Source of the DNA: a virus
IMG/VR virus record: IMGVR_UViG_3300045988_121909
DNA: 64,000 nucleotides
Strand: one strand, 5' to 3'
Positions 10,784 to 38,536 of this stretch are shown here, one piece after another. Position numbers and translations under genes: made by a program. The notes below the pieces were generated by a model that saw only the letters and a list, made by a program, of their open reading frames with translations, did not search any database and was not told the origin of the DNA. The first letter of the stretch is position 1. Each line of letters starts with the position of its first letter.

Positions 10784-10785
10784 AT

Positions 10786-14233: not shown

Positions 14234-14235
14234 AA

Positions 14236-14262: not shown

Positions 14263-14263
14263 T

Positions 14264-14293
14264 GTTTACATCATTCTGAATAAGTGATATAAT
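14264..14293 (+). promoter_or_regulatory. promoter GTTTACA-N17-TATAAT upstream of rtcB
   Basis: gtttacatcattctgaataagtgatataat. Confidence 0.55.
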
Positions 14294-14326
14294 AAATATA
14301 TCAACTACTTAAGGAGAAGTTCATTT

Positions 14327-15520: not shown

Positions 15521-15533
15521 GGTGAGGTAAAGT

Positions 15534-16049: not shown

Positions 16050-16061
16050 GAAGGTAAGCAA

Positions 16062-16379: not shown

Positions 16380-16455
16380 GGCGGCATAGTCCAGTGGCTC
16401 AAGACGGCAGACTGCAAATCTGCTTATCTCAGTTCGATTCTGAGTGCCGTCTCCA
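16380..16455 (+). tRNA. tRNA-Cys(GCA)
   Basis: Acceptor ggcggca/tgccgtc; anticodon arm gcaga ctGCAaa tctgc; T-arm ctcagttcgattctgag; CCA. Confidence 0.8.
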
Positions 16456-16459
16456 TTGT

Positions 16460-16536
16460 AGGGGTATGTTCTAATGGCTTATGATGTCGGTCTCCAAAAC
16501 CGTACGATGTGGGTTCGAGTCCTACTACTCCTGCCA
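16460..16536 (+). tRNA. tRNA-Trp(CCA)
   Basis: Acceptor aggggta/tactcct; anticodon loop ctCCAaa; T-arm gtgggttcgagtcctac; CCA. Confidence 0.7.
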
Positions 16537-16554
16537 ATTTTGAAAGGAAGTAAA

Positions 16555-17346
16555 ATGGAATTCAATTACAAGAAGAAAAGATTTAAGCAGTTTGACGTTA
16601 AGATTGAAATGTTTGAATGTGTTACTCAAGATTATAGTGAAACTCCAATTTTTACAATATCTTTTTACGCTGAAAATAGAAATATCTTGATGAAAGAATT
16701 AAAGAAATTTTTGAAAGAGCGTAATATAGATAATACTGCAAATATATTGTGCGTTCTGAATCGTGCTTCAACAGTATATACACATACACATTACAGACAA
16801 GTCGATAATACAGCTCATTTTATTTCAGGCAACTCGCTTTATAGAGTCACATTCAAATGTATTACATCAAGAGTAAGTTGTATGCCACCTAAAGATAGAG
16901 TAAACAATAAGGGCGAAAATATTCTTGAAAAGAGACTACGTCAAGCTTATGGAGATTTGCTGCTTTATAGATATAGCAAAGCGAGAGAGGTAGCAAATAA
17001 TTCTAGTATTGTAGTTGCAGCACGTAATCATTTAAAAGAAGAACTGCTTAAAAATACTGCAGTCGAGCCATTTAAAGATACAGCATTGCGTATAGACTTT
17101 AATCGCGCTAAAAAGATTACTATTGAGCTTTCAAAGTTTGTGCGTCTAGATTTTAAAGCTGAGTATAAATTCGATAAGACAGCGTTAGACGTTAAATTTA
17201 AGGTATTAAATATTATATATTATGGTAATGCTATACAAGAATTACCTCCTATTAACGATAGTATAGACGAAGAAATAGTTGAGCGTGCAGAAGAGACTGC
17301 TAAGATTTATGAAGAAATTATTTCTCTTTTGAAAAAGAATGCTTAA
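16555..17346 (+). CDS. hypothetical protein, GEN-I-x(2)-KR paralog family member 3
   Basis: ATG at 16555 after aaaggaagt; contains NKGENILEKRLRQ. The longer ORF call overlaps tRNA-Trp. Confidence 0.55.
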   Translation: MEFNYKKKRFKQFDVKIEMFECVTQDYSETPIFTISFYAENRNILMKELKKFLKERNIDNTANILCVLNRASTVYTHTHYRQVDNTAHFISGNSLYRVTFKCITSRVSCMPPKDRVNNKGENILEKRLRQAYGDLLLYRYSKAREVANNSSIVVAARNHLKEELLKNTAVEPFKDTALRIDFNRAKKITIELSKFVRLDFKAEYKFDKTALDVKFKVLNIIYYGNAIQELPPINDSIDEEIVERAEETAKIYEEIISLLKKNA

Positions 17347-17358
17347 AAGGTACTATAA

Positions 17359-17895
17359 ATGAAAAATATTTTAATTCTTGTTGATATGCAGAATGGTTTT
17401 ACTGAGCATCAACGAACAAATGATTTAACAAAAAAGATTGAGAGCATACTTTGTTTATTTGATGAAGTTATAGCAACTCAATATATAAACTATGACAATA
17501 GCGTTTACGAAAATCTAATGCGTTGGTGTCAGTTAAAAAGTAACGACGAGATTGCGATTAGATCTGAACTACAGCCATATATAACTGAAGTTTTTCCTAA
17601 GAGTCTTTATACTTGCATTTCACCAAACTTTATTCAGAGACTTTGTCAGTTAAATGACGGTTTATACCCAACAAAGATTTTTATTGCTGGAGTTGATACA
17701 GACTGTTGTGTGCTAAAGATAGCAACTGATTTGTTTGAGAGTAATATTAGACCTGTTGTACTTACAGAGTACTGTTACTCTAATGGTGGAGAAGAATCTC
17801 ATAAATCTGGCATTTTATGCATGAAAAGACTACTTGGAGATAAACAGCTAGTAGATGCTATTCTTACTACAAATTCAGATATTAATTTGTTGTAA
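17359..17895 (+). CDS. isochorismatase-family cysteine hydrolase (nicotinamidase/PncA-like)
   Basis: ILVDMQNGF N-terminal motif and IAGVDTDCCV catalytic-cysteine region, typical of isochorismatase-fold hydrolases. Confidence 0.55.
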   Translation: MKNILILVDMQNGFTEHQRTNDLTKKIESILCLFDEVIATQYINYDNSVYENLMRWCQLKSNDEIAIRSELQPYITEVFPKSLYTCISPNFIQRLCQLNDGLYPTKIFIAGVDTDCCVLKIATDLFESNIRPVVLTEYCYSNGGEESHKSGILCMKRLLGDKQLVDAILTTNSDINLL

Positions 17896-17901
17896 AAAGA
17901 T

Positions 17902-17931
17902 GTTTACAAATAGGTTGTAATATGTTATAAT
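17902..17931 (+). promoter_or_regulatory. promoter GTTTACA-N17-TATAAT with ~140-nt structured leader before the HE gene
   Basis: gtttacaaataggttgtaatatgttataat. The leader contains a 9-bp inverted repeat, agcgcttaa...ttaagcgct. Confidence 0.5.
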
Positions 17932-18078
17932 TTATTTAAATTTATCGAAAGTGATTAATTCGATGAATTCCCAGCGCTTAATCAATAGGAAGTCAGCTAG
18001 TGTAATCAACTTCGCTGCACTGAGGACAGGCAGAAACCTCTAAGCGCTAACTTATCAAGGTAAAGGATAATAAATTTA

Positions 18079-18984
18079 TTGACAAATAGCATTGCAAATA
18101 CGAAAACATTTAAATGTGCGTGTGGAAAAGAATTTATAAACGGTCAGCAGTTTAATGGTCATAAGTCTAGATGCAAGATACACCATTTGAATAAATACGG
18201 TAATCTTGATATTTATGATAAAGTGCAATCTGCATTATCCAATGGTATGTCAATAAGTAAAAAACAAAAAGCAAAAGAAAAGCGTCAAACACGCATGCAA
18301 ACATGGGTTGATGAAAAGCATCAATGCGAAAAATGCGGTAAAATAATGGCAGTTTTCTATGGCTCAGGAAGATTCTGCTCGCGTAGTTGCGCTAATAGTA
18401 AACAACATTCTGAAGAAACTAAAACTAAAATAAGTAAAGCTCTAAAACTAGACGTAGAAAAGAAGTTTTGTAAGCAATGCGGCAAAGAATTATGTTCTAG
18501 AAATATAAGTGGTTACTGTAAAGTTTGTCTTAGAACTTGTGATGAATTTCATGAGCAAAGAAAACTAAGCGCTAGAAAAGTTTACGAAAATTCTGTTAAA
18601 AACGGTACATTTAAAGGATGGCAACTAAGAAATGAAACACCGTTTTCTGAAAAATTTTTTATTAACATACTCAATCAGCATAAAATACCGTATACCCATA
18701 ATAAACCCGTAAAGCAATCAAATAATCGCTATTGTTATTTTCTTGATTTTTACATAGAGTTACCTGACATGAAACTCGATTTAGAAATTGATGGCAAGCA
18801 ACACAAATACCCTGAACGAAAAGAAGCAGATAAGCGTAGAACAGCTGAATTAGAAAATTTAGGTTATACAATATATAGAATTGAATGGAATGAAGTAAGA
18901 ACAGAAAAAGGAAAATTACAATTAAATCAGAAAGTAGAAGATTTTTTAAATTTTCTATATAAGAATGGTTTTAAAAAGATATAG
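18079..18984 (+). CDS. homing-endonuclease-like protein (zinc-ribbon repeats plus C-terminal PD-(D/E)XK nuclease), paralog of 21813-22703
   Basis: N-terminal half about 70% identical to the ORF at 21813 (CxCGKEF..QQFNGHKS..GSGRFCSRSCAN). C-terminal DFYIE...LEIDG..H nuclease motif. Apparent TTG start. Confidence 0.6.
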   Translation: MTNSIANTKTFKCACGKEFINGQQFNGHKSRCKIHHLNKYGNLDIYDKVQSALSNGMSISKKQKAKEKRQTRMQTWVDEKHQCEKCGKIMAVFYGSGRFCSRSCANSKQHSEETKTKISKALKLDVEKKFCKQCGKELCSRNISGYCKVCLRTCDEFHEQRKLSARKVYENSVKNGTFKGWQLRNETPFSEKFFINILNQHKIPYTHNKPVKQSNNRYCYFLDFYIELPDMKLDLEIDGKQHKYPERKEADKRRTAELENLGYTIYRIEWNEVRTEKGKLQLNQKVEDFLNFLYKNGFKKI

Positions 18985-19059
18985 GCTATTAGCTCAGGTG
19001 GTTAGAGCATTCGTCTGATACGCGAAAGGTCTTAAGTTCGAATCTTAAATAGCCTACCA
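18983..19059 (+). tRNA. tRNA-Ile(GAT)
   Basis: Acceptor aggctat/atagcct; D-arm tagctcaggtggttagagc; anticodon loop ctGATac; T-arm cttaagttcgaatcttaa; CCA. Confidence 0.8.
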
Positions 19060-19071
19060 ATAAGAGAATTT

Positions 19072-19144
19072 CACTGATTACAGTTTAATTGGGTAAACGT
19101 CTGCAATAGCAGAAGATTGCGGGTTCAAGTCCCGTCTTCAGTGG
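19072..19144 (+). tRNA. irregular tRNA-like element (possible pseudo-tRNA)
   Basis: Recognisable D-arm (gtttaattgggtaaac), T-arm (gcgggttcaagtcccgt) and a 6/7 acceptor pairing. No foldable 5-bp/7-nt anticodon arm and no encoded CCA. Confidence 0.3.
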
Positions 19145-19498
19145 GTGCACAGATTCTCTTTATGGCTACTTAGAGCTCTGAGTAGCCGTCTACGGTCACA
19201 CAGTACAGCCTGCACGCGGCGTGACTGCTACATAACTAATGTACTAAAGAATGGACATTATGAAAAGGGTAAGTCAGTGAGTAGCCATGTCGGCGCAATA
19301 GCTGAGATAATCTTACTTGGTAGTGAAGTTAGTTTTAATCTAACGTATAACTTTTCATAATAATGAGTAGCTCAATTTTCTACCGCCAGTAATGAGGAAA
19401 TACGAGAGTGAAAGTCAAACTTATGTAGCCGATATTCGTATTAGTCGGTAAAGCTCTAAAGCTAGCTAGACAGAGCCTACATAAGTCAGTCCATATAT

Positions 19499-19574
19499 GC
19501 TGGTATAGCTCAATTGGTAGAGTACTTGTTTTGTAATCAAGGTGTTGGGGGTTCAAATCCCTCTATCAGCTCCA
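19499..19574 (+). tRNA. tRNA-Thr(TGT), second copy with a different body
   Basis: Acceptor gctggta/tatcagc; anticodon loop ttTGTaa with U-U at 31-39; T-arm gggggttcaaatccctc; CCA. Confidence 0.65.
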
Positions 19575-19575
19575 G

Positions 19576-19602
19576 TTTATGCAACGTATGTTGCATTTTT
19601 TT
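19576..19602 (+). terminator. rho-independent terminator
   Basis: Hairpin atgcaac-gtat-gttgcat followed by a T9 run. Confidence 0.65.
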
Positions 19603-19664
19603 TTATGTTAGTTTACAAGTTGATAAAAATAGTTTATTATATCTATAGAGGAGATTAAAAAACT

Positions 19665-20291
19665 ATGAGTACATTAACTACATTAATTAATTTTGTATCA
19701 ATATTGATAATTATATACAATACGCTTGATGCTTTATTATTTAGCAGAGCAAGACTTAATAAGCAGCTTAGTACTCTTGCTGAAGAAAAGCATAAATCAT
19801 CGTTTGCAATGATTGTATCGCTTGCGATTATATTAGTGGTAAATACATATTTCGTGATTACCACTGATACATCTCAATATTTGTTTGCAGGCGAAGTATT
19901 TCTTGTTTTTATAATGTTTATGAATTATATTTCATTCATTACAAAAGAAGAGTGTTGTACAGTAGTTATTGAAGATACTGTACGAAATACAATTAATATT
20001 GTGCGTATGGAAAATATTAAGCTATGTAAAAAGTATTCAGACGTACTACCTGCTGAATTAGTTAATGATGTTTTAAACTATAATGGCGAAATTAATTTTA
20101 ATTATGCAGGTTATCGAGAAGATTTTTGCAAAGAGATTGTTAAACCGTACTATGAAAAATTATTAATAAGAGAAACATTTAATACAGATGAAGAAATAGA
20201 ATCGTTTGAAATGAATGTACTCTTAAAAGAATTAATACGGTTTTACGCTAATATGCGTGAATTCGTAAACGAGCATGAGTGTATAAGATAA
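19665..20291 (+). CDS. membrane protein (208 aa)
   Basis: Two N-terminal TM helices; soluble C-terminal domain. Confidence 0.5.
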   Translation: MSTLTTLINFVSILIIIYNTLDALLFSRARLNKQLSTLAEEKHKSSFAMIVSLAIILVVNTYFVITTDTSQYLFAGEVFLVFIMFMNYISFITKEECCTVVIEDTVRNTINIVRMENIKLCKKYSDVLPAELVNDVLNYNGEINFNYAGYREDFCKEIVKPYYEKLLIRETFNTDEEIESFEMNVLLKELIRFYANMREFVNEHECIR

Positions 20292-20301
20292 AGGAGAGAC
20301 T

Positions 20302-20967
20302 ATGATATTAGTAGAGTATTTAATATTCAGTTTATATTTATTTTTTCAATTTATTATGTTTTTAGTATTTAATGACATCGCTAAGATAGATTTTAAAGTC
20401 GATACGTCTTCAAACGATATTACAGTCGCATTTCTTAAATGGGTATTAAGCTTTTGGTTTACGGTTAATTCTGTAGCTATGGTTGCAGCAATGTTAAATG
20501 TTTTATTTGTAAAAAGTTTCTCTATTATCTTTGGCATTATGATTATTTTAGTTGCAGTAATACATATACTCTTATGTACATATATGAAAAAGAGTGTAAA
20601 AGAACTAAAAATAAAAGAAGTATTAACTGCTTGTTCAGACAGAGACTACGATGTAAACGCGATAGAAAGTTACATTCACTCTTATAACATAGATAAGATA
20701 TATAAAGAGCTTATCCTACCTCTTCATAATTTAATCATAGCAAGAGATAGCTTTAAAACAGTTGAAGCGCAAGAAAAGTATGATGAAGTAGTACTAAACG
20801 AAGAAATAGAAATATTTATGAAGAATCTAGAGTATGTAATTAATGAAGAAAAAGAAAATCGTGAGAAAGCAAGACAGCAAAAAGAAAACATAGCAAAAAT
20901 ATCTGATGAAAAGATACTAGACAATATAAAGAAAAACTACAAAGGGTTAGAAAAATACTACGAGTAG
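20302..20967 (+). CDS. membrane protein (221 aa)
   Basis: Three or four N-terminal TM helices; Lys/Glu-rich C-terminus. Confidence 0.5.
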   Translation: MILVEYLIFSLYLFFQFIMFLVFNDIAKIDFKVDTSSNDITVAFLKWVLSFWFTVNSVAMVAAMLNVLFVKSFSIIFGIMIILVAVIHILLCTYMKKSVKELKIKEVLTACSDRDYDVNAIESYIHSYNIDKIYKELILPLHNLIIARDSFKTVEAQEKYDEVVLNEEIEIFMKNLEYVINEEKENREKARQQKENIAKISDEKILDNIKKNYKGLEKYYE

Positions 20968-20996
20968 TTTACGTATCAAGCCATTTGTGATATAAT
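20967..20996 (+). promoter_or_regulatory. promoter GTTTACG-N17-TATAAT positioned to transcribe solo omega-RNA-like copy 3
   Basis: gtttacgtatcaagccatttgtgatataat, ending 7 nt before the conserved aatgcggttgacgac. Confidence 0.5.
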
Positions 20997-21003
20997 AATA
21001 TTA

Positions 21004-21121
21004 AATGCGGTTGACGACCGTATTCTCGCTTGGTAAATTTGCTCTAGAGGGTAGTTAGTTTTAAAGCTAACGAGAGTGACCTAAGCTTACCCAGGAATGC
21101 GCTTGAGCGCAACGTCATAAT
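21004..21121 (+). ncRNA. solo omega-RNA-like / TnpB right-end element, copy 3
   Basis: Conserved with copies 1 and 2. Followed about 15 nt later by a hairpin (aaagagaat..attctcttt) and a T-run. Confidence 0.5.
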
Positions 21122-21161
21122 ATTATTTATTAAAGAGAATTTACCTATTCTCTTTTCATTT

Positions 21162-21239
21162 GCAGAAGTAGTTCATATTGGTTAGAACGTTACCTTGCCA
21201 AGGTAAAGGCTGCGAGTTCAATTCTCGTCTTCTGCTCCA
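21162..21239 (+). tRNA. tRNA-Gly(GCC)
   Basis: Acceptor gcagaag/cttctgc; anticodon arm ttacc ttGCCaa ggtaa; CCA. Confidence 0.8.
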
Positions 21240-21242
21240 TAC

Positions 21243-21319
21243 GGGCTCATAGCTCAGCTGGATAGAGCAATAACCTTCTAAGTTATTTGTCCAAGGTTCG
21301 ACTCCTTGTGAGCTCGCCA
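21243..21319 (+). tRNA. tRNA-Arg(TCT)
   Basis: Anticodon arm ataac ctTCTaa gttat; T-arm caaggttcgactccttg; CCA. Confidence 0.8.
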
Positions 21320-21323
21320 ATAT

Positions 21324-21408
21324 AGCGGGGTGATGAAATTGGTAGACATACAGGAATTTGACTCCTGCGCCTTAAAGCTTGTGGGTTCAAGTCCCACCCC
21401 CGCTGCCA
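21324..21408 (+). tRNA. type II tRNA (long variable arm) with apparent anticodon TTG
   Basis: Acceptor agcgggg/ccccgct; anticodon arm cagga atTTGac tcctg; 14-nt variable arm; T-arm gtgggttcaagtcccac; CCA. The isotype is ambiguous, because the Gln anticodon sits on a Leu/Ser-type body. Confidence 0.5.
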
Positions 21409-21415
21409 GATACAT

Positions 21416-21495
21416 TGCGGAGTGGAGAAGTGGTTATCTCGTCAGGCCCATAACCTGAAGGTTTATCGTCGGTTCGAATCCGACCTCCGCAACCA
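21416..21495 (+). tRNA. tRNA(CAT) number 1 (Met, or Ile2 if lysidinylated)
   Basis: Acceptor tgcggag/ctccgca; anticodon arm tcagg ccCATaa cctga; 9-nt variable loop; T-arm gtcggttcgaatccgac; CCA. Confidence 0.65.
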
Positions 21496-21504
21496 ATACT
21501 TTTT

Positions 21505-21581
21505 GCGTCACTAGCTCAATTGGATAGAGTGCCTAACTACGAATTAGTAGGATGAGGGTTCAAGTCCTTCGTGACGCGCCA
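21505..21581 (+). tRNA. tRNA-Arg(ACG)
   Basis: Acceptor gcgtcac/gtgacgc; anticodon loop ctACGaa; T-arm gagggttcaagtccttc; CCA. Confidence 0.75.
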
Positions 21582-21596
21582 GATACGGGAAGATAC

Positions 21597-21676
21597 TCAA
21601 GTTTGGTGAAGAGGGCAGTTTGCTACACTGCTAGGATGTAACAGTCGCGTGAGTTCGAGTCTCACTCTTCCCGCCA
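21597..21676 (+). tRNA. tRNA-Ser(GCT), type II
   Basis: Acceptor gggaaga/tcttccc; anticodon arm gcagt ttGCTac actgc; long variable arm; T-arm gtgagttcgagtctcac; CCA. Confidence 0.75.
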
Positions 21677-21679
21677 TTT

Positions 21680-21756
21680 GTACCATTAGCTCAGTAGGTT
21701 AGAGCAGGCGGCTCATAACCGCAAGGTCCTTTGTTCAAATCAAAGATGGTGCACCA
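21680..21756 (+). tRNA. tRNA(CAT) number 2
   Basis: Acceptor gtaccat/atggtgc; anticodon loop ctCATaa; T-arm ctttgttcaaatcaaag; CCA. Confidence 0.65.
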
Positions 21757-21812: not shown

Positions 21813-22703
21813 ATGGAAATGTATAAATGCGTATGTGGCAGAGAATTTATGAACGCGCAACAATTCAACGGTCATAAATCGCATTGTAAAACATATCAGT
21901 TAGATAAGTATGGTAATCTAGATGTTTATAATAAAGTAAAATCTGCGTTTTCTAGTGGCGCATCGATAAGTAGAAAACGTCAATCAGAAAAAGCAAAAGA
22001 AAAACGTAAGACACTTGCGCAGAAATGGATTGATGAGAAGCATCGGTGTGAAAAGTGCGGTAGAGTTATGACAGTTTTCTACGGTTCAGGAAGATTTTGT
22101 TCGCGTAGTTGTGCTAATACTCGCCAGCATTCTGAAGAAACTAAAGCTAAAATTGGTAAAGGCAGTTACAGAGCGCATAAACGTGGTGTATATAAAAGGA
22201 TAATTAAACGTGATATCTCTAAGAGTATTATTTCATATGAACGTGACCCTAATAAATGTACTCAATGTGGTAAAATTTTACCTTATAATATGCGCTTTAA
22301 GAAAACTTGTTCAGAAGAGTGCTTACACAATCTTAGAAGTGAGTTAGGTAAAAAGCTTGTAAAATTACAGAATCTAAGAAGTAAGAATGAGATTGCTTTT
22401 TGTGAATTATGCGAGCAGTATTTTGGAAAAGAGAATGTTTTACATAATGCAGTTATGTTCAATGGCTGGGATGCAGATATAATAATTCCTGATTTAAAGG
22501 TAGCGATTTTATGGAATGGTCCTTGGCATTATATTGAAATATCTAAGACGCAGAAACTAAAGCAAGTTCAGAATAGAGATAGAATAAAGCTAAGAGAAAT
22601 AATTAACTGCGGATATAGACCGTACATTATAGAAGATGTAAAGCGTGAGAAAGATAAAGTAGAAAAAGAGTTTGAAAGATTTAAAAAGAGATATTGCTTT
22701 TAA
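21813..22703 (+). CDS. homing-endonuclease-like protein (zinc-ribbon repeats plus C-terminal PD-(D/E)XK nuclease), paralog of 18079-18984
   Basis: YKCVCGREF..QQFNGHKS..GSGRFCSRSCAN; a second copy of the FCSxxC module. C-terminal DADIIIPD...nuclease-like region. Confidence 0.6.
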   Translation: MEMYKCVCGREFMNAQQFNGHKSHCKTYQLDKYGNLDVYNKVKSAFSSGASISRKRQSEKAKEKRKTLAQKWIDEKHRCEKCGRVMTVFYGSGRFCSRSCANTRQHSEETKAKIGKGSYRAHKRGVYKRIIKRDISKSIISYERDPNKCTQCGKILPYNMRFKKTCSEECLHNLRSELGKKLVKLQNLRSKNEIAFCELCEQYFGKENVLHNAVMFNGWDADIIIPDLKVAILWNGPWHYIEISKTQKLKQVQNRDRIKLREIINCGYRPYIIEDVKREKDKVEKEFERFKKRYCF

Positions 22704-24840: not shown

Positions 24841-24899
24841 TTTATATGCTGTAGTATTTTACTACAGCATTTTCGTCTTTATGTTTAGAGGTATTATGT

Positions 24900-25769
24900 A
24901 TGTTAAAACGTTTCAAGTTTATGAGAAAACTAAAGCGCACTGACAAGCTAATCAGAGAAAATGCAGAAGAGTTTGCACGTATACTAAGTAAAAAGAATCA
25001 TTATTTAACTTTTGATGATTCTGTACTTGAGTTTGAATATAAAGGCAGTACACGAATCAGTCGTGCGACTTATGCGAAAGAGTTTTATTTGACGATTGAT
25101 AAGTCTACTGACGAGATTTACTTTACGCAGAATGATGTTACAGATGAAAGTAAAATCAGTATTATATACGGAGTTGTATTCAATCATACGTTTGCAAAAA
25201 GTTTAGAGCAGAAAGTATGTGATTTAAGCAATTATATTCTTGACGTCTGGACTGTAGAGCTATTGAAGTATATTGATGAAACTCGCATTTGTGTATATGA
25301 CAATAGACTTGAATATCACGAAAAACCGTTATTCTATGATTTTGTTCGCAAGCTCAATGAAATGGAAAGCTTAAACAGAAAAAGAATTGATGCTATTGTT
25401 GAGCGTTTAAAGAGAATAACAGCGAATGACACGAGATTCTATTTAGACACTACTGAGCATAAATGCTCATTTACTGAATACGTAGTCAGATTTAGTTCAG
25501 GACTAACTGATATTATCATTCCGTGCTATTTGACTTATTTCGCAAATAGTGATGAGTTTATGTTTACTCCGTTTGACTGTACAGATGGCGAAAATGTTAG
25601 TATATTCTATAATGTTTCATTTGGAGCAAACGCTAGCGTATTCAATAGAAACTACGAAATTATAGAAGATTGTTTAAAGCATATAGTGCCAGAAACTCAC
25701 GCTGCACTGCAAAACAAACTCGGTCAAGAGTTTTACATAGAAGATGTATATATTTCAAAGTGGAGATAA
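24900..25769 (+). CDS. hypothetical protein (289 aa)
   Basis: Long ORF after a hairpin terminator at 24845-24875. Confidence 0.5.
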   Translation: MLKRFKFMRKLKRTDKLIRENAEEFARILSKKNHYLTFDDSVLEFEYKGSTRISRATYAKEFYLTIDKSTDEIYFTQNDVTDESKISIIYGVVFNHTFAKSLEQKVCDLSNYILDVWTVELLKYIDETRICVYDNRLEYHEKPLFYDFVRKLNEMESLNRKRIDAIVERLKRITANDTRFYLDTTEHKCSFTEYVVRFSSGLTDIIIPCYLTYFANSDEFMFTPFDCTDGENVSIFYNVSFGANASVFNRNYEIIEDCLKHIVPETHAALQNKLGQEFYIEDVYISKWR

Positions 25770-25779
25770 GGAGATTAAG

Positions 25780-26718
25780 ATGTTAAAATACCCATCACTT
25801 GAAAATCATTATAATATTACAAGCTCAAGAAAACTCATGGCTGTTCTTGACGAAGAGTTTTATGCTACTGAGAAGATTCACGGTAGTAATATGTCGATAG
25901 AGTTTACTAAAGACTCTACTAGATATTTTAGTAGAAATAGAGAAGTAACGCTTAATGATAAAGCTCTTGGTAGTTATCTTGCAACTACTAACAACCTTAA
26001 ATATATTGAGAATATTGCAAAATCAATTCTTGAAGGTTCAGTAAATCTAAGTAAAAAAGAAAATGATATAACTAAAGTAATCATCTTTGGTGAGTTATAT
26101 GGCAGTGGTATTCAGAATATGGAATACGCTGAAAATAAAGCAGGCATAAAACAATTCAGAGTATTTGATGTTTTTGTATTTGAAGATAACAGAGCTTATA
26201 CTCTAAGCGCTGAAGAGCTACTTCACATTTTTGGTCAGTTAACCGTACCATTCTTTACAGAAGTTAAACCTCTTAGAGAGTGGCTTACAACTGAATTGCC
26301 TGAGATATCAACACTTGGTGGTCCTATTGAGGGTCTAGTATATAAACCTTTTGATGGGCAAATACTAGCTTTTGATAATGGCTCAGTGTGCAATTACCTA
26401 GGAGTAAAACATAAGACAGAGCAGTTTGCTGAGATTAAGAGTAGAAAGAAAGAAGCACCTGTACAAACTGACGGTGAGATTAACTTTAAAGATAATATTG
26501 AGAGATATTTCACGATGCAGAGGCTAGATAATCTACTCTCTAAAGGAGATATCGAGTTATCAGTAAGAAATCTTGGCACTATTATTCCTGCATACTTAGA
26601 AGACGTAAAGACTGATTACATTAAAGATAACCCTGATTCATATTTTAATCAGAGAATTCTTAATAAAGCAATGCCAAGTCTAGTAGTAAAGCTTGTAAAA
26701 GAAAAACTTGCTCAATAG
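25780..26718 (+). CDS. RNA ligase 2 (T4 Rnl2-like)
   Basis: N-terminus MLKYPSLENHYNI...EKIHGSNMS matches the T4 Rnl2 KYSSLENHYN...EKIHGTNFS region, including the adenylylation lysine (KxHG). Confidence 0.8.
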   Translation: MLKYPSLENHYNITSSRKLMAVLDEEFYATEKIHGSNMSIEFTKDSTRYFSRNREVTLNDKALGSYLATTNNLKYIENIAKSILEGSVNLSKKENDITKVIIFGELYGSGIQNMEYAENKAGIKQFRVFDVFVFEDNRAYTLSAEELLHIFGQLTVPFFTEVKPLREWLTTELPEISTLGGPIEGLVYKPFDGQILAFDNGSVCNYLGVKHKTEQFAEIKSRKKEAPVQTDGEINFKDNIERYFTMQRLDNLLSKGDIELSVRNLGTIIPAYLEDVKTDYIKDNPDSYFNQRILNKAMPSLVVKLVKEKLAQ

Positions 26719-26772
26719 TTTACTTTTGTATCATATTATGTTAAAATCTTCTTATTAAAGGAGATTTGACGT

Positions 26773-27510
26773 ATGGAACTTAAAGTATCAACTAAAGAAT
26801 TTGCTAATAAGCTGAATAAAAGCTCATCTTATGTTTATGATAATCTTAATAAACTAGTAGGTAGAGAACTACTTTTCGCTAAGAAAGATTTAAATAATAA
26901 GTATGTGCTTATTTTAAACCCATTTTTTGATTTAAAGACAATAAAATTCACTGCACTGCAAGACAGTAAAGAGCTGAAGCGTAAAATCGCTGATATTTAT
27001 GTACAAGCACAGTTAACTGCAAAAGAGATTATATCAGATTATAATTCTAATACAGCATTACATATTAAAAAAGAATGTGATTTATTTGCGAATGACAGAA
27101 CTATCTCAAACGTTGATGCAGCAATTAGTACATATGAAAATATTTATAATAACCTTACTGAAAGAGAAGAGTTTGTATTTTCAATAATCAACAAATTCTC
27201 TGCCGATACATTAAATAAAGCTTGTATTTCTGAACATAACGATTCTGTATATTTATACATTAATACGTCAACTAATAAGAATAAAGCAGAATTATTTAAT
27301 GCGCTTGCGGGTTTTGAGTATACAGTCAATAACGCAATGATATTTGAAAAAGACGAAGTAAGAATTAGAATATCAAATCACTTACCAACATATTTTATGA
27401 GTGAGTATAAAACAGAAGAAATTGAAATAAAATCTGATAAGAAGTACGCTAACGATATTCTTATATTCTTCAAAGATACGAAAAGAGATTTTAAGTTTAA
27501 GCTTGTATAA
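26773..27510 (+). CDS. hypothetical protein (245 aa)
   Basis: ORF with RBS (aaaggagat). Confidence 0.5.
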   Translation: MELKVSTKEFANKLNKSSSYVYDNLNKLVGRELLFAKKDLNNKYVLILNPFFDLKTIKFTALQDSKELKRKIADIYVQAQLTAKEIISDYNSNTALHIKKECDLFANDRTISNVDAAISTYENIYNNLTEREEFVFSIINKFSADTLNKACISEHNDSVYLYINTSTNKNKAELFNALAGFEYTVNNAMIFEKDEVRIRISNHLPTYFMSEYKTEEIEIKSDKKYANDILIFFKDTKRDFKFKLV

Positions 27511-27522
27511 GGAGAAAAAGAT

Positions 27523-27897
27523 ATGATGAACATTACGACTCTAGAGAGATTATGCAGAGAATATCCTGATGTAAGAGTAAAGTACGTTGACACGACTAAA
27601 CTAGATGAGAATTACTACAGAGGGTTTGGCAGTTGGAGAGGTGATTATCATCAGCCTGCTATTTTCTTTAAAGATTATATTAAAGACAAGTATATGACTC
27701 TTGCCGACTTGCTAGTAGTTATAGATAAGCTGACAGACGGCTCTAAGTATGAAGGTTACAAAGGTGGTTTATTCTCATTTGAAAACGCTGACTGGATTCA
27801 TTTTGAATACGATGAAAGTTGTTTTAGCGATTGCCCATTGTTTGAGTTCTTGCACCCTGATGACATTACGCAAGAGATTGAAGAAATGTGCAAGTAG
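27523..27897 (+). CDS. hypothetical protein (124 aa)
   Basis: ORF with RBS (aaggagaaa). Confidence 0.5.
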   Translation: MMNITTLERLCREYPDVRVKYVDTTKLDENYYRGFGSWRGDYHQPAIFFKDYIKDKYMTLADLLVVIDKLTDGSKYEGYKGGLFSFENADWIHFEYDESCFSDCPLFEFLHPDDITQEIEEMCK

Positions 27898-27901
27898 CAG
27901 C

Positions 27902-28588
27902 ATGAGTATTTATCTATACGGAGATTTACATAGAACAATTGATTTAGAGCCATTAGTAGAATTATCAAAAGAAAAAAGAGTTACAGATGAAGATGTTTTA
28001 ATCATTCTTGGCGATTTTGGCGGTATATGGTATAATGAAAAAGATGACAGTGAATTCCTTAATCGCTTGGCTGATTCTGTTTCTTATAAGCATATTCTAT
28101 TCATAGATGGCAATCACGAAAATTTTAATAGATTAAATAAACTACCTATCGCTGAGATGTATGGAAACCCTACTCACGAAGTGTTAAAAGATAAAATCTA
28201 TCATTTAATGAGAGGGTACAAGTACACTATTGAAAATAAGACATTCTTTGCAATGGGCGGTGCTGATTCTATTGATAAGCATCGAAGAATTGCTAATGTT
28301 GACTGGTGGTCTGAAGAATTACCTAGTAACGAAGAGTATGAAAGAGCGTTTAAGACTTTAGATGAGAATAACTTTACTTTTGATTATATTATTTCTCATT
28401 GTACGTCTTCTTATATATTAAATGATATTTCAGCTTATATGCACGATAAGAATAAACTAACAAACTTCTTTGACAGTATTCTTTGTGATTTAAGCTACAA
28501 AAGATGGTATTTTGCTCATTATCATTTGAATAGAATTAGCCCGATGTATAACGCAGAGTGCTTGTATTTGAGATTAGTCGAGATTTAA
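27902..28588 (+). CDS. lambda-phosphatase-type metallophosphoesterase
   Basis: Motifs YGDLHR, LGDFGG (GDxxDRG-like) and DGNHENF. Starts at the ATG at 27902 (MSIYLYGDLH). Confidence 0.65.
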   Translation: MSIYLYGDLHRTIDLEPLVELSKEKRVTDEDVLIILGDFGGIWYNEKDDSEFLNRLADSVSYKHILFIDGNHENFNRLNKLPIAEMYGNPTHEVLKDKIYHLMRGYKYTIENKTFFAMGGADSIDKHRRIANVDWWSEELPSNEEYERAFKTLDENNFTFDYIISHCTSSYILNDISAYMHDKNKLTNFFDSILCDLSYKRWYFAHYHLNRISPMYNAECLYLRLVEI

Positions 28589-28690: not shown

Positions 28691-28741
28691 ATTTTACTAT
28701 ATATGTAAAATAAAACATTTAACATAAAATTGTTTACAGTT

Positions 28742-28771
28742 CCACAGTTAGATGATATAATAAACTTAAGA
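28742..28771 (+). promoter_or_regulatory. promoter GTTTACA-N17-TATAAT
   Basis: gtttacagttccacagttagatgatataat. Confidence 0.55.
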
Positions 28772-28902: not shown

Positions 28903-28938
28903 AGCGCAAGAGTGCTCATTAACAGAAAGGAATTTTTA

Positions 28939-30084
28939 ATGGCAAGTATTTTATCTATTGCAAAAAAGCTAAACAAGATGTATGACGAAGAGATATGCAT
29001 CAGAGGTGACGTAATACCTAAGGTTAATTTTATGCCTACAGGTGCATTAGCTGCAGATTACTCTCTCGGTGGAGGTTTTCCAAAGGGACGTATAATTCAA
29101 ATCTCAGGTAGACCTCACGCAGGTAAGACGACTCTTACTTTTACTGCTATCGCAGCTTATCAGCGTGAGAACCCAGATTCAATGTGTGTATACATAGACG
29201 TAGAGCACGCGATTGATATTGATTTTCAGTGCGCTATGACTCACGTCGATAGAGAAAAGCTTATCTATGTAAGTCCTACAAGAATGGGCGCAGAGGCTAT
29301 CTTTGATATGGTTCTTGAAATGCAAGAGGCTGAAGACATCGGAATGATTGTTATTGATAGTGTAGCAGCGCTAGCGTCAACAAGACAGCTTAATGCTGAT
29401 ATAGAAAAAGATTTAGGTCAGGCAGGTAATATTGCTAAGTCTCTACATAACTTCTGTAGACAGGTACAAGATTTAGTGTATTACAAGAAAAACATTCTTG
29501 TACTTATTAATCAGACAAGAACTACACCTCTCCCTAATGGTGCTCTCTCATTCAGTGAACCTGGTGGTACAGCAATGGGCTTCTATCCTTCTTTGAGTAT
29601 TAGATGTGGTACAAGAAAGTTTATTAACAAGAGTGGTGCTGAGACAACTAATGGTGAAGACGCAATCGGTTTTAAGATTGTATTCAATATCTTTAAAAAT
29701 AAAGTAAGTAATATTTCAAGAGGTGGTGGTTATATTACTTATAAATACGACACAGGTATTGACACTTCTTCTGATGCTATTGATATTGCTATTAAAGCTG
29801 GTTATATTAATAGACCGACTAATGTAACATACCAGATTGTTGATTTAGAAACAGGAGAGATTCTTACTGTCGATGGTACTGAATGCAGTTTCAGAGGTAA
29901 GCCTGCGCTTGTAGAATTCTTTAATACACATCCTGAGTTTACACAGGAGTATGTAAAAAAGATAAACAACGCTCTTGCAGGTAATAAAGAAGTAAATCTT
30001 GAATTACTTGATAAAGACGTGCTTGATGAATTACGTGCTGAAGAGAATAGTGTAGAGAATAACAACGTTAAAGACAATGAGTGA
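28939..30084 (+). CDS. RecA/UvsX-family recombinase
   Basis: Walker A GRPHAGKTTL in RecA-like context (KGRIIQISG); Walker B IVIDSVAAL; length 381 aa. Confidence 0.8.
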   Translation: MASILSIAKKLNKMYDEEICIRGDVIPKVNFMPTGALAADYSLGGGFPKGRIIQISGRPHAGKTTLTFTAIAAYQRENPDSMCVYIDVEHAIDIDFQCAMTHVDREKLIYVSPTRMGAEAIFDMVLEMQEAEDIGMIVIDSVAALASTRQLNADIEKDLGQAGNIAKSLHNFCRQVQDLVYYKKNILVLINQTRTTPLPNGALSFSEPGGTAMGFYPSLSIRCGTRKFINKSGAETTNGEDAIGFKIVFNIFKNKVSNISRGGGYITYKYDTGIDTSSDAIDIAIKAGYINRPTNVTYQIVDLETGEILTVDGTECSFRGKPALVEFFNTHPEFTQEYVKKINNALAGNKEVNLELLDKDVLDELRAEENSVENNNVKDNE

Positions 30085-30092
30085 TTATAGTG

Positions 30093-30127
30093 CACTGTAG
30101 TATTTTTACTGCAGTGCATTTTTTTTT
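30093..30127 (+). terminator. rho-independent terminator followed directly by a GTTTACA promoter (30128-30159)
   Basis: Hairpin gtgcactgtagta-ttttt-actgcagtgcac followed by a T9 run. Confidence 0.65.
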
Positions 30128-30183: not shown

Positions 30184-30735
30184 ATGACAGCACTAAGACA
30201 AATATCTTTTCAGTCAAGAGCTAAAGACAACAAAGATGTAGAGAACTTTAAAATTAGAAAAAAGTTTAAGCTAGTGACAGATGAAGAGTTTGAAGATATT
30301 GAAAAACTAAAGAAAGAATTTGATGAATTCGTACAACAAGGCGTTAAAGGTGAGACTTGTAGATTCTATGCAGCATTCAACACTATCGATGAAGAAGTTT
30401 TAAAGAAAGCTCTAGTAGTTAAGCTACTAACAGACGAAAACGTGAAACTTAAGAATATCAATAACACACTTATTTCTCTTAGTATGACAAGTAAGCTACT
30501 AACTAAAAAATGGTTGTTTGATTTTGACTCTACTGATGAAAGTCTGCTTGTAGAATTCTTTAAAGACTTATACAAGATTTTTAAACCTATAGAAATTGAA
30601 GTATGCAAAACTCCAAACGGTTATCATATTGTAACAGCGCACGGATGTGATACACGTGAACTACTAAAAGATAGACCGCATATCGAAAACAAGCGTACAG
30701 ACGGAATGAGACTTGTAGATTACAGAAAGAAGTAA
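30184..30735 (+). CDS. hypothetical protein (183 aa)
   Basis: ORF with RBS (acggaggt). Confidence 0.5.
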   Translation: MTALRQISFQSRAKDNKDVENFKIRKKFKLVTDEEFEDIEKLKKEFDEFVQQGVKGETCRFYAAFNTIDEEVLKKALVVKLLTDENVKLKNINNTLISLSMTSKLLTKKWLFDFDSTDESLLVEFFKDLYKIFKPIEIEVCKTPNGYHIVTAHGCDTRELLKDRPHIENKRTDGMRLVDYRKK

Positions 30736-30737: not shown

Positions 30738-31790
30738 ATGCTTAAAGAATTAGAGATTTTTAAGAAAGAACTACAACCTTATACTGATAGAGCATATTTC
30801 GTAGGCGGTTGCGTAAGAGACGAATTCTTAAGCAGAGCTTGTAAAGACATTGATATTGAAGTATTTGATGTTGAGCAAGAAACTCTTGAAAAGATTTTGA
30901 ATATCTGCGCAGAAAAGCTAGGTTTCAAAGAAGTAGAGCTAGTAGGTAAGCAGTATGGCATCTACAAACTTGGTGAGCTTGATATTTCTATTCCTAGAAT
31001 TGAAACTAAGACTGGTGATAAGCATACTGATTTTGAGTGTACTCTTTGCCCTACTCTTCCTGTAGTAGACGCTCAGAGAAGAAGAGACTTTACTGTAAAT
31101 GCTATTTATAAAAACATCTTTGACGGTAGCATCGTTGATAGTTTTAATGGAATCTCTGATATGAGTAAAAGAGTTATAAAACATATTGATGATAAGACTT
31201 TCATTGAAGACGCATTGAGAGTTTTTAGAGCAGCAAGATTTTCATCAGTGCTAGATTTTGAAATAAGCGAAGAAACAAAGGCACTATGTAAAAAGATTAA
31301 TCTATCAGCTCTGCCTACAGAGAGAATAGTTCAGGAAACTAGCGCAGCTTTGATTAAGTCAGATACTCCAAGCGTATATTTTAAAACGCTACAAGAAATT
31401 ATCTCTGATTTTGACACTATCTTTGGTGATATTGATTTTTCTGAAATAGACAGTGTAGTAAAAGACATAAACATTATGTACGCATTTTTGTACAAAGACG
31501 CTGACGTGATTCCCGATATGATTAAGTCTACTAAGCAGAGAAAACTGATTGAGCTATCAAGAATTACAGACGAAGTACAGCTTTTCAAAGTATTTCTAAA
31601 AGACAGAGAAGTTACAAAGCAGTACACAATTCTTAGAGGCATAGATTATACAGAAAAATTTAGCAAAATAAAAGCGCCTACAGGCTCAGAGATTATGAAA
31701 AAGTATAGTATTGATAAGCCATCAGCAGAAGTTGGCATACTGCTTGAAAAAGAATACAAAGAACTATTGAAGGAGAAAGAAAGTGAATAA
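30738..31790 (+). CDS. tRNA nucleotidyltransferase (CCA-adding enzyme) head/neck domains
   Basis: Pol-beta-like motif YFVGGCVRDEFL...DIDIEV (GGxVRD and DxD), typical of class II CCA/poly(A) polymerases. Confidence 0.7.
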   Translation: MLKELEIFKKELQPYTDRAYFVGGCVRDEFLSRACKDIDIEVFDVEQETLEKILNICAEKLGFKEVELVGKQYGIYKLGELDISIPRIETKTGDKHTDFECTLCPTLPVVDAQRRRDFTVNAIYKNIFDGSIVDSFNGISDMSKRVIKHIDDKTFIEDALRVFRAARFSSVLDFEISEETKALCKKINLSALPTERIVQETSAALIKSDTPSVYFKTLQEIISDFDTIFGDIDFSEIDSVVKDINIMYAFLYKDADVIPDMIKSTKQRKLIELSRITDEVQLFKVFLKDREVTKQYTILRGIDYTEKFSKIKAPTGSEIMKKYSIDKPSAEVGILLEKEYKELLKEKESE

Positions 31791-32313
31791 CTTTACAGAA
31801 CTAATACACAAGCTAGAAGATTTAAAGCTATACCGTCAGAGTAGAGTAAACCGCTGGCAGTTGAGAGATTATATGTTTACTCAGAATGACGCAGAGCATC
31901 AGTTGTTTGTAAGTCAGATTGTAGTTTATCTTGCTGATTTACTTTGCATTCCTGATGAAATTACTTTTGCAGCATTGAAATATGCTTGTGTACACGATTA
32001 TGTAGAAAGCGTAGAAACTAGCTTAGGCGATGTTAATTATATGATTAAAGAAAAGAACCCTGAGCTAAAGGCTCTTGTAAAGAAATTAGAACGAGACGCT
32101 ATGCAAACAGTGCCTGCTTTTTATGGGGCTATGGAGAATTGCGAAAAGGTTGAAGACGCAATGACTCTTGTAAAACTAGCTGACGCACTTGATGCGCTAC
32201 TCTATACTCGTAGAGAAATACGCCATAATAAAAATGACGATGAGTGGAATCAGATTGAAAGAGAAGCGTCAGAGCGTGCAGAAGAGCTGCTGAGAAAACT
32301 ATGCGAGGAGTAA
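31783..32313 (+). CDS. HD-domain phosphohydrolase
   Basis: H...HD...D pattern (AEHQL, CVHDYVE, DALDAL). Overlaps the stop of the CCA-enzyme gene. Confidence 0.55.
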   Translation: MNNFTELIHKLEDLKLYRQSRVNRWQLRDYMFTQNDAEHQLFVSQIVVYLADLLCIPDEITFAALKYACVHDYVESVETSLGDVNYMIKEKNPELKALVKKLERDAMQTVPAFYGAMENCEKVEDAMTLVKLADALDALLYTRREIRHNKNDDEWNQIEREASERAEELLRKLCEE

Positions 32314-37624: not shown

Positions 37625-38536
37625 ATGAAACAGTTTGTATACGAATATGACGTAATAAAGAGAGTAGTTAAAAACTACAGAGTAGAGATAGAAACGCGCA
37701 ACTTAAACACGTTTGAAGATGGCAGTATATTCTATGCGTTCTCTGATTCTAAAAATGATACAGTTAAGAGAACTGTAAACAAATTAAAGAAACTATCTTG
37801 CCCTAAAGATACTAGATTATATTTTGTTAACTCACTTAATGAAGTAAGCAAATACTGCGCTGATGAAGAATACAGCGATTCAGTTGAATTCGTGCGCGAT
37901 AATATTCTTTATAAAGTGAAGTTTAACATATATAATACGTACTTAGATATCAAGTGTACACGCACTAACGATAGAGGCGAGAATATCGCTGATAAAAGAC
38001 TTGTTGCAAATAGTAAGGGTACAAACGCTTATAAATTTGCAGAAATTGCTTATAAAATAGATTTGTCTGATATATCTAATTATGTAGACAAGCATGTCAG
38101 AACAAATTACATTAAATCTCACATTCATTTCAATGACTTTAATGAGCTTGTTCTTGACAATAACTTTAAAATAGAGGTTGACAACGATACGTCTATCGAA
38201 GTAGAAGCGAAGATTGGTAAAGATATTGATGTGTATGATGAGTATGAATACACAGAAAGACGTGCGTCAGACGTAGTAGATGATATAGTGTTCAATAACT
38301 TTGATTTTGACTATAAAACGGAAGCCATAACATATAAAAACGAAAGAATTGACTTATACAGCAGGTTCGTATCAGGAAATGCCTTCAGGTACTTAATCTG
38401 CTATGATAACATCGCTGATGTATTAAAAAAACTTAATTATCTGGATGTTGAGATTACCGATGAGCATCTTGAATTCATCAAAAATGCTTACGTTATATAC
38501 AAAGCTGTAGTCGATGCAATAAATAGCAAGGAGTAA
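37625..38536 (+). CDS. hypothetical protein, GEN-I-x(2)-KR paralog family member 4
   Basis: Contains ...NDRGENIADKRL... Confidence 0.55.
   Translation: MKQFVYEYDVIKRVVKNYRVEIETRNLNTFEDGSIFYAFSDSKNDTVKRTVNKLKKLSCPKDTRLYFVNSLNEVSKYCADEEYSDSVEFVRDNILYKVKFNIYNTYLDIKCTRTNDRGENIADKRLVANSKGTNAYKFAEIAYKIDLSDISNYVDKHVRTNYIKSHIHFNDFNELVLDNNFKIEVDNDTSIEVEAKIGKDIDVYDEYEYTERRASDVVDDIVFNNFDFDYKTEAITYKNERIDLYSRFVSGNAFRYLICYDNIADVLKKLNYLDVEITDEHLEFIKNAYVIYKAVVDAINSKE

Follow-up and report, generated by a model that had tools for sequence, protein, structure and literature searches.

A divergent Rnl2-family RNA ligase with a linked metallophosphoesterase in the tRNA-repair setting of a large phage

The present study concerns a 64 kb stretch of viral DNA (IMG/VR record IMGVR_UViG_3300045988_121909, called the window here in its whole length) and an RNA ligase gene that lies in it at 25780-26718. 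Judged from its sequence, the gene can be assigned securely as a complete, true Rnl2-family RNA ligase in which every catalytic residue is intact. Its tRNA-repair context is also secure, and an RNA-repair reading of the ligase is plausible because the gene sits among 25 tRNA genes, an RtcB ligase and a CCA-adding enzyme. A metallophosphoesterase (MPE) is encoded further downstream at 27902-28588. A functional tie between the ligase and the MPE gains support from the finding that two MPE families, both present in the window, are repeatedly encountered next to nick-sealing RNA ligases in phage lineages that are independent of one another. The best explanation, to which we would give an even chance, is that Rnl2 reseals tRNA nicks beside RtcB and that the MPE supplies the 3'-OH ends. 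The features involved are as follows.

4238-21756, + strand: 25 tRNA genes for 20 amino acids, with open reading frames (ORFs) interspersed (ARAGORN, Rfam)
14327-15520, + strand: RtcB RNA ligase (PF01139, 4.2e-59; NCBIfam RtcB models)
25780-26718, + strand: Rnl2-family ATP-dependent RNA ligase, 312 aa, nucleotidyltransferase plus Rnl2-specific C-terminal domain (PF09414, PF18043)
27902-28588, + strand: binuclear MPE, 228 aa, PHROG 1649, not of lambda/PPP type (PF00149, PHROG 1649)
30738-31790, + strand: CCA-adding tRNA nucleotidyltransferase (PF01743, 4.4e-19)

The Rnl2-family ligase and its setting

The large ORFs of the window were scanned with Pfam and NCBIfam profiles. An initial annotation, made from the sequence alone, had recognised the ligase by its N-terminus and had suggested profile searches for the nucleotidyltransferase and Rnl2 C-terminal domains. 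Both domains score above the Pfam thresholds. PF09414 (RNA_ligase) matches residues 25-193 at 5.7e-21, with 75.8 bits against a cutoff of 27, and PF18043 (T4_Rnl2_C), an all-helical domain, matches residues 238-288 with 31.2 bits against a cutoff of 27. The Rnl2-specific C-terminal domain is needed for nick sealing. The N-terminal peptides that had been quoted (KYPSLENHYN and EKIHGSN, against KYSSLENHYN and EKIHGTN in T4 Rnl2) are exact. PHROG 548 ('RNA ligase') matches the protein end to end at 2.3e-45, the T4 Rnl2 structure 2hvq matches it at 1.4e-10, and the ATG start codon at 25780 has AAGGAG 8 nt upstream.

The ligase was aligned with T4 Rnl2 (from NC_000866) and with two Enterococcus phage Rnl2s. 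It was found that the nucleotidyltransferase motifs I (KxHGxN), Ia, III, IIIa, IV and V are all present. The catalytic residues conserved with respect to T4 Rnl2 are K32, H34 and N37 (motif I), R52, E105, F129-D130, E184(-G185), K210 and K212, and in the C-terminal domain R248 and D275 are conserved as well. We take the T4 Rnl2 equivalents to be K35, H37, N40, R55, E99, F119-D120, E204, K225 and K227, with R266 and D292 in the C-terminal domain. Across 21 metagenomic homologues the catalytic residues are invariant or nearly so.

On sequence criteria the ligase is a divergent member of the Rnl2 family and no equivalog of the T4 enzyme. NCBIfam TIGR02307 aligns over nearly its full length (protein residues 3-308, profile positions 3-315 of 326) at E 2.5e-21, with 76.5 bits against an equivalog cutoff of 197, which is a naming threshold and no mechanistic feature. 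Identity is 29% to T4 Rnl2 and at most 34% to any cultured phage, the closest cultured relatives being Enterococcus and Streptococcus siphophages (33-34%). Rnl2-like genes occur in 1007 of 50,697 catalogued phage records (~2%), and a megablast of the block around the ligase against these 50,697 genomes gave no match. The same ligase is found at 94-95% identity in two IMG/VR contigs, of 191.7 kb (IMGVR_UViG_3300045988_098416) and 173.7 kb (_112802).

The window has 32.9% GC and nearly all of its genes are on the + strand. Its source is a large gut-type phage with a genome of ~190 kb and 33% GC. RtcB and Rnl2 are both encoded, as had been noted before. RtcB joins 3'-phosphate or 2',3'-cyclic-phosphate ends to 5'-OH ends. 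The CCA sequence is encoded directly 3' of the discriminator base in 24 of the 25 tRNA genes, and therefore the CCA-adding enzyme presumably serves in tRNA 3'-end repair and not in maturation. Its top NCBIfam match is 'multifunctional CCA addition/repair protein' (2.8e-34, under the cutoff of that model). A marginal 26th tRNA-like Rfam match lies at 19073-19143 (29.6 bits against a cutoff of 29).

The ligase and the MPE belong to a run of five genes, the other parts of which are given here.

24846-24870, + strand: terminator-like hairpin, an 11-bp stem followed by a T run, at the upstream edge of the block
24900-25769, + strand: orf289, with its stop 10 nt before the Rnl2 start
26773-27510, + strand: orf245, a lineage-specific orphan with no family match
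27523-27897, + strand: orf124, a lineage-specific acidic protein, with its stop 4 nt before the MPE start
28733-28761, + strand: the best promoter-like site, at the downstream edge of the block (TTTACA-17-TATAAT with TG extension, 11/12 positions), in the 323-nt gap before recA/uvsX

In the order orf289, Rnl2, orf245, orf124 and MPE the intergenic gaps are 10, 54, 12 and 4 nt, and there is no terminator-like hairpin on the + strand between 24870 and 30089, the next one being at 30089-30120. The layout of 24900-28588 is thus operon-like. Promoter-like sites in general are no commoner in the window than in shuffled sequence, so that the site at 28733 is weak evidence. The 'block' of the initial annotation holds for 24900-28588, with its tight gaps and no internal terminator-like hairpin, and it does not reach the P-loop protein named in the same annotation, which is encoded 18 kb upstream of the ligase. 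Two ORFs without assignable function do follow the ligase and precede the MPE, as had been described. orf289 has no Pfam, PHROG or PADLOC match; in the relative L009 its homologue (E 2e-30) immediately precedes Rnl2, and L001/L002 have paralogues. Neither orf245 nor orf124 has a match in Pfam, PHROG, NCBIfam or PADLOC. Among the loci of relatives, homologues of both are found only in the 95%-identical L001/L002, and a search of 1.84 billion representative proteins with orf245 returned only 5 matches, all of them close relatives or weak. The PADLOC scan gave one weak match only, to the MPE (PDC-S10, 1.1e-5), which is uninformative.

The metallophosphoesterases and their linkage to RNA ligases

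The MPE at 27902-28588 is matched by PF00149 at 3.7e-10 (41 bits against a cutoff of 21.5) and by PHROG 1649 at 1.4e-30, with PHROG 547 as a weaker second match, and its homologues in the database number 4664. It shows the superfamily's five metal-binding motifs and its alpha-beta-beta-alpha sandwich fold. The metal ligands D8, H10, D38, N71, H72, H166, H206 and H208 are invariant in 38 sequences. The enzyme had been labelled 'lambda-type' on the strength of the triad GDxHG/GDxxDRG/GNHE, and of this triad only GNHE was found. Motif I reads GDLHR, the family consensus being GD(T/L)H plus a variable residue. Motif II reads GDFGGIW (family consensus GDFGGVW) and has no D-R-G, so that the PPP phosphate-binding Arg motif is missing. 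Motif III reads DGNHEN, and GNHE is common to other MPE subfamilies including Dbr1. The lambda-type label must therefore be given up, since PPP motifs I and II are absent and the closest relatives in sequence or structure are not PPP enzymes.

A search by sequence against the chains of the Protein Data Bank (PDB) gave no match for this MPE. The predicted model is confident (pLDDT 96.6) and all of its top structural matches are MPEs. The closest folds are the phosphodiesterases Dbr1, CWF19L1, MPPED2 and PptH, and the model also resembles the nucleases/phosphodiesterases Mre11/SbcD and Rv0805. Judged from its metal ligands and from this model, the MPE is a catalytically competent enzyme with a phosphodiesterase-like fold. 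It should be noted here that the fold scores of Dbr1 and CWF19L1 are barely above those of unrelated MPE subfamilies (aq_1956 15.0, PptH 14.6). The MPE keeps the canonical Asp of motif I in comparison with Dbr1. With 228 aa against ~350 aa it is without the extra Dbr1 regions, and there is no evidence of 2'-5' specificity.

A second MPE gene of another family is also present in the window.

41965-42498, + strand: small MPE of the mycobacteriophage D29 gp66-like family, with one in-frame TGA at 42256-42258 (tblastn)

It matches L113:11184-11828 by tblastn at E 1e-43 across the stop codon, and the SHYP and GHxH motifs continue in frame after the TGA. The family is homologous to D29 gp66 (E 2e-14). 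The TGA could be the mark of a pseudogene, a sequencing error or a read-through site. Recoding was considered, and nothing supports it, as homologues vary at the aligned position and a suppressor tRNA is absent. D29 gp66 is reported as a 2',3'-cyclic nucleotide phosphodiesterase (Dutta et al. 2014, cited in PMC12287305). According to PMC12287305, its substrates are monoesters, diesters and cAMP, and it has an inhibitory effect on phage growth. Two D29 proteins were tried as characterised homologues of the MPE at 27902-28588 and were rejected: gp54, the cluster-A MPE, is not similar (E 0.38), and gp66 matches only the small MPE family.

The neighbourhood of the PHROG 1649 family was surveyed in 80 IMG/VR loci centred on homologues of this type, which group into 36 lineages at 70% identity. 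In eight of the 36 lineages, or seven when the window's own is excluded, the MPE has a PF09414 RNA ligase within 10 kb. Five of these seven show an offset of 1.7-4 kb, and the remaining two show offsets of 5.9 and 9.3 kb. The partners fall into three ligase subfamilies: Rnl2 with its C-terminal domain (L129), the PHA02142-OB DraRnl-like type (L096, L100, L104, L113, L148) and a 318-aa type (the L140 lineage). L096, L113 and L148 carry on one strand a ligase, a P-loop kinase of 145-175 aa that resembles polynucleotide kinase (PNK), a gp66-like small MPE and a PHROG 1649-type MPE. A survey centred on Rnl2 (80 loci, 56 lineages) revealed an MPE of either family within 10 kb and on the same strand as Rnl2 in 11 lineages, and one short ORF separates Rnl2 from the following small MPE in L049 and L051. 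As control, 80 loci centred on ThyX were used (1.2 Mb, collapsing to 5 lineages). An RNA ligase was absent from them, and neither MPE family gave a significant match, the MPE hidden Markov model (HMM) returning one weak match at E 4e-4. The density of tRNA genes near the MPE family is 12.8 per 100 kb as compared to 5.3 in the control.

Some further observations were made at these loci. A Pnkp-like fusion of bacterial type, encoded by a metagenomic phage at L136:15974-18184, lies ~6 kb from a PHROG 1649-type MPE and joins a P-loop kinase to a true lambda-type phosphatase (GDLHGC, GDYVDRG, GNHE). It is ~730 aa long, and from this length alone a C-terminal ligase-like domain is probable. The P-loop kinases of L096, L113 and L148 match this fusion. 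DUF2828/DUF7788 proteins, which we take to be TROVE/vWA-like, are encoded at L003:6894-8354 and L005:6993-8519, with a TAGT-family gene, just upstream of the closest non-identical homologues of the MPE. Homologues of orf183 (30184-30735, PHROG 8839) are present in the divergent relatives L016, L018 and L019 (E ~1e-28 to 1e-30), where they lie 2-3.5 kb upstream of Rnl2, and at one MPE locus (L108), and orf183 could be an extra conserved neighbour of Rnl2.

Possible roles of the ligase and its phosphoesterase

It is proposed that the two RNA ligases would act side by side. RtcB would reseal breaks whose ends are a 2',3'-cyclic phosphate and a 5'-OH, and Rnl2 would reseal nicked tRNA, in which 3'-OH/5'-PO4 breaks are held in a duplex-like stem. 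Together they could cover both end chemistries left by host tRNA nucleases. The CCA enzyme would rebuild damaged 3' ends, and the phage tRNAs would replace those that are beyond repair. The MPE is plausibly an RNA 3'-end phosphodiesterase/phosphatase that removes 2',3'-cyclic or 3'-phosphate, and the 3'-OH ends so made would feed Rnl2 and perhaps the CCA-adding enzyme. A 5'-kinase may lie elsewhere in the genome, may come from the host, or may be needless for breaks that carry a 5'-phosphate.

The sole basis for giving the MPE a part in 3'-end healing is the recurrent gene linkage, and a number of observations weigh against this part. An RNA ligase within 10 kb is absent in 28 of the 36 MPE lineages. 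The closest non-identical homologues (71% and 57% identity) have TAGT, DUF2828, RNase_T and FtsK genes as neighbours and lack a ligase within 10 kb. The MPE of Streptomyces phage Samisti12 adjoins rIIA/rIIB, and in Mycobacterium phage Baka there is no annotated ligase near it. Conversely, the Rnl2 of Enterococcus phages, of T4 and of L010 has no MPE beside it. Other genes on the same strand and less than 3 kb from the MPE code for integrases, HNH endonucleases, methyltransferases, dUTPase, GyrB, nucleoside deoxyribosyltransferase and isochorismatase. In two of the three kinase cassettes (L148 and L113) the nearer of the two MPEs to the kinase is the gp66-like small one, and therefore it may be the real healing enzyme. 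The healing role of the PHROG 1649 MPE is thus weakened because most lineages have no ligase, because the gp66-like MPE is better supported in the cassettes and because the neighbourhood is a generic accessory one. Further, no member of PHROG 1649 has a known substrate, and we know of no established physiological role for T4 Rnl2. The enrichment of MPE-ligase pairs over the ThyX control has p=4e-7 per locus and p=0.56, which is not significant, per lineage. With only 5 control lineages the lineage-level test is underpowered, and reliance is therefore placed on the per-locus contrast and on the rarity of phage RNA ligases.

A serious alternative, although a somewhat unlikely one, is that the MPE is unrelated to Rnl2 repair and acts as a stand-alone counter-defence or takeover phosphodiesterase or nuclease. 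It might act on host DNA, on cyclic or 2'-5'-linked nucleotide signals or on nucleotide pools, and its position after Rnl2 would reflect a loosely organised early accessory region. The lineages without a nearby ligase, the unrelated neighbourhoods of the closest homologues and the generic accessory or nucleotide-metabolism setting all fit such a role, and so does a fold nearest to phosphodiesterases and nucleases (Dbr1, MPPED2, Mre11/SbcD, Rv0805). Gp48, an MPE of mycobacteriophage A10ZJ24, shows phosphodiesterase activity, causes damage to host DNA and acts against defence, and calcineurin-like T5 A1 orthologues are predicted to degrade nucleotide signals (Iyer et al. 2021, PMC7824862). Against this stands the linkage to three ligase subfamilies and to PNK-like kinases, which independent lineages show repeatedly, on the same strand and for the most part within 4 kb. 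Chance placement near ligases is hard to accept because Rnl2-like genes are present in only ~2% of phage genomes, and the 1.2 Mb of control loci had no RNA ligase. The parallel with mycobacteriophages also has its limit, as D29's own cluster-A MPE gp54 is not significantly similar to the MPE of the window; Gp48 itself was not compared directly.

It is improbable that the block serves DNA replication or recombination, with Rnl2 sealing ribonucleotide-ended 3'-OH nicks and the MPE trimming blocked DNA ends together with RecA/UvsX. The RecA/UvsX gene at 28912-30084 does come next, and Mre11/SbcD is among the solved structures that match the MPE fold. Nick-sealing ligases of the Rnl2 and DraRnl types take a DNA 5'-phosphate strand (PMC3884662, PMC4408790), and topoisomerase II and NAD-dependent DNA ligase recur near Rnl2 in some relatives. 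Yet recA appears to form a separate transcription unit, with the promoter-like site at 28733 and its own terminator, and the window already has an SbcD-like MPE (2311-3324) and an NAD-dependent DNA ligase (45380-47242). Linkage to tRNA genes, to PNK-like kinases and to RtcB, Thg1 and the CCA enzyme speaks for RNA.

The initial annotation had gone further and had proposed a three-enzyme healing-and-sealing pathway after the logic of Pnkp/Rnl, in which a P-loop protein would be the 5'-kinase.

6574-7401, + strand: small-molecule kinase like NadR/thymidylate kinase, outside the module, with a lineage-specific C-terminal extension of ~98 aa (PF13521 AAA_28)

PHROG names this protein 'thymidylate kinase', and its best PDB sequence match is a deoxynucleoside kinase. 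Its closest relatives by profile and by structure are not polynucleotide kinases. Relatives with 57% identity are encoded immediately upstream of dUTPase, in operons that also have ThyX, DNMK and NrdD/NrdG. Its HMM matches, its fold and the genomic surroundings of its relatives all identify the 6574-7401 protein as a small-molecule kinase and no polynucleotide kinase. An AAA_28 kinase within 5 kb of an RNA ligase was found only in L009 and in the L140 lineage; in the window the distance to Rnl2 is 18 kb. Neither a polynucleotide kinase nor a Pnkp fusion was found in the 64-kb window, the only ORFs with a Walker A motif being this kinase and RecA, and there is no homologue of the PNK-like kinases of L096, L113 and L148. 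Only the ligase and the candidate phosphoesterase are linked in the window, which does not have the complete set of kinase, 3'-phosphoesterase and ligase known from T4 Pnkp/Rnl1 or bacterial Pnkp.

The pathway as written is not demonstrated because the kinase-like protein is a small-molecule kinase that is unlinked to the ligase, and the MPE is not lambda-type. That the 6574-7401 kinase acts on 5'-OH ends, a lambda-type enzyme removes the 3'-phosphate and Rnl2 seals, as an equivalent of Pnkp encoded in trans, is very improbable: the Walker A motif is intact (GAPGAGKST, residues 11-19), an AAA_28 homologue is only 4.4 kb upstream of Rnl2 in L009, and in the L140 lineage one lies ~1 kb past the end of the MPE gene with an RNA ligase 3.3 kb upstream of the MPE, but that motif does not tell kinase classes apart, the L140 kinase too adjoins dUTPase, and the credible RNA kinase of the cassettes is the different P-loop protein of 145-175 aa.

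A theme of NAD and nucleoside salvage is suggested by the nucleoside 2-deoxyribosyltransferase at 1101-1535, the NadR-like kinase at 6574-7401, an isochorismatase/nicotinamidase-like protein at 17359-17895 and a YAcAr SLOG protein at 54732-55097. On this view the kinase might instead act as a nicotinamide riboside kinase. In relatives the surroundings of the kinase operon also contain NadR-like (NMNAT plus AAA_28) genes and genes for PnuC-like NMN transporters. Thg1-like tRNA 5'-end repair polymerases are encoded at L174:9880-12549 (also in L175 and L176) and at L095:7912-8736, near the AAA_28 kinase/dUTPase operon or the MPE family.

If the pairing of Rnl2 with the MPE is functional, phage RNA repair would gain a third structural class of 3'-end-healing enzyme, and the pairing would give a first function to a very common phage phosphoesterase family (>4,600 members). 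It would also support the existence of large phages with two ligases of complementary end chemistry, RtcB and Rnl2. With their own tRNAs and CCA repair, such phages could withstand many host tRNA-cutting defences. The pairing would further bear on the long-open question of the role of Rnl2 in vivo. We suggest, tentatively and with more doubt than confidence, that PHROG 1649 MPEs may be a widespread phage class of RNA 3'-end healers, apart from the lambda/Pnkp, HAD and 2H enzymes and with Rnl2 and DraRnl-like ligases as partners, or else, in keeping with the Dbr1-like fold, 2'-5'/2',3' phosphodiesterases that destroy host immune nucleotide signals. The residual novelty is PHROG 1649 as a candidate family dedicated to RNA-end healing, which we regard as a possibility.

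Other genes of the window and comparison with known systems

Further genes that were assigned with profiles are listed here.

2311-3324: SbcD-like MPE (Pfam/NCBIfam)
28912-30084: RecA/UvsX (Pfam, PHROG)
31783-32313: YfbR-like HD protein of the 5'-deoxynucleotidase family (Pfam/NCBIfam)
45380-47242: NAD-dependent DNA ligase (Pfam/NCBIfam)
48507-52967: topoisomerase II subunits (Pfam/NCBIfam)

The HD protein was considered as a split-off HD domain of the CCA-adding/repair enzyme and was rejected, as it has no similarity to the HD-containing CCA enzyme of L009. The GyrB-like topoisomerase II subunit (48507-50987) has a HINT/intein-like insertion (PF07591, residues 583-697) between its Toprim and C-terminal domains. 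Profiles also identified ThyX, two TnpB, TelA, an SPFH protein, an isochorismatase-like protein and a nucleoside deoxyribosyltransferase. The TnpB/Cas12f-like genes (OrfB_IS605 plus TNB domain) lie at 67-576, where the gene is cut by the window edge, and at 58288-59454, and the first has homologues in L016 and L019. Three paralogous ORFs at 18079-18984, 21813-22703 and 47362-48561, to which 4738-5511 is related, combine a zinc ribbon with a DUF559 endonuclease-like domain (at most 40% identity, E 2e-58). Two of them are embedded in tRNA arrays, and they look like mobile or homing endonuclease genes. Another family of ~290 aa has the motif '(N/D)xxGENIxxKR' (10855-11802, 12732-13604 and 16474-17346; possibly also 11963-12739, 37625-38536 and 38899-39693), with copies scattered through the tRNA/RtcB region. 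Other paralogue sets start at 53763/55340/60542 and 34133/35036, and there are membrane proteins at 7405/13592/20302 and 39817/40696.

Among known systems, T4 Rnl2 (rnlB/24.1; PDB 2hvq, 1s68) has the two-domain architecture and the catalytic residues in common with the ligase of the window, and the N-termini are nearly identical. The setting of rnlB is different, as it lies among head genes without MPE or tRNA neighbours. DraRnl of Deinococcus radiodurans and NgrRnl of Naegleria are nick-sealing ATP-dependent ligases that need an RNA 3'-OH strand, according to PMC4408790. DraRnl has an N-terminal OB fold, whereas the ligase described here is of the Rnl2 type with a C-terminal domain instead.

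The phosphatase module of Clostridium thermocellum Pnkp (CthPnkp) and the phosphatase of bacteriophage lambda belong to the same binuclear MPE superfamily as the MPE at 27902-28588 and share GNHE with it. As described in PMC2190708 and PMC3675462, they are PPP-type MPEs with 2',3'-cyclic phosphodiesterase activity. The job proposed for the MPE, RNA 3'-end healing before ligation, would be the one that these sources give to the CthPnkp and lambda enzymes. In many metagenomic phages, members of the D29 gp66 family are neighbours of Rnl2 or DraRnl-like ligases and of PNK-like kinases, and gp66 is homologous to the interrupted MPE at 41965-42498 and not to the one at 27902-28588.

The set as a whole resembles the RNA-repair toolkits of jumbo phages, which combine tRNA arrays, RtcB and/or Rnl1/Rnl2, nucleotidyltransferases, and end-healing kinases plus phosphoesterases (Iyer et al. 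2021, PMC7824862). In these toolkits calcineurin-like or HD domains occasionally provide the phosphatase, and calcineurin-like RNA end-healers were proposed in a few jumbo phages. The co-occurrence of RtcB and Rnl2 in one phage, which had been thought unusual, was already described there. The phage of the window, at ~190 kb (IMG/VR relatives 174-192 kb), is just below the usual jumbo cut-off, and the PHROG 1649 family was not singled out in PMC7824862. Because such toolkits are already described, the Rnl2 of the window, though divergent, is an ordinary one within a phage toolkit of a documented kind.

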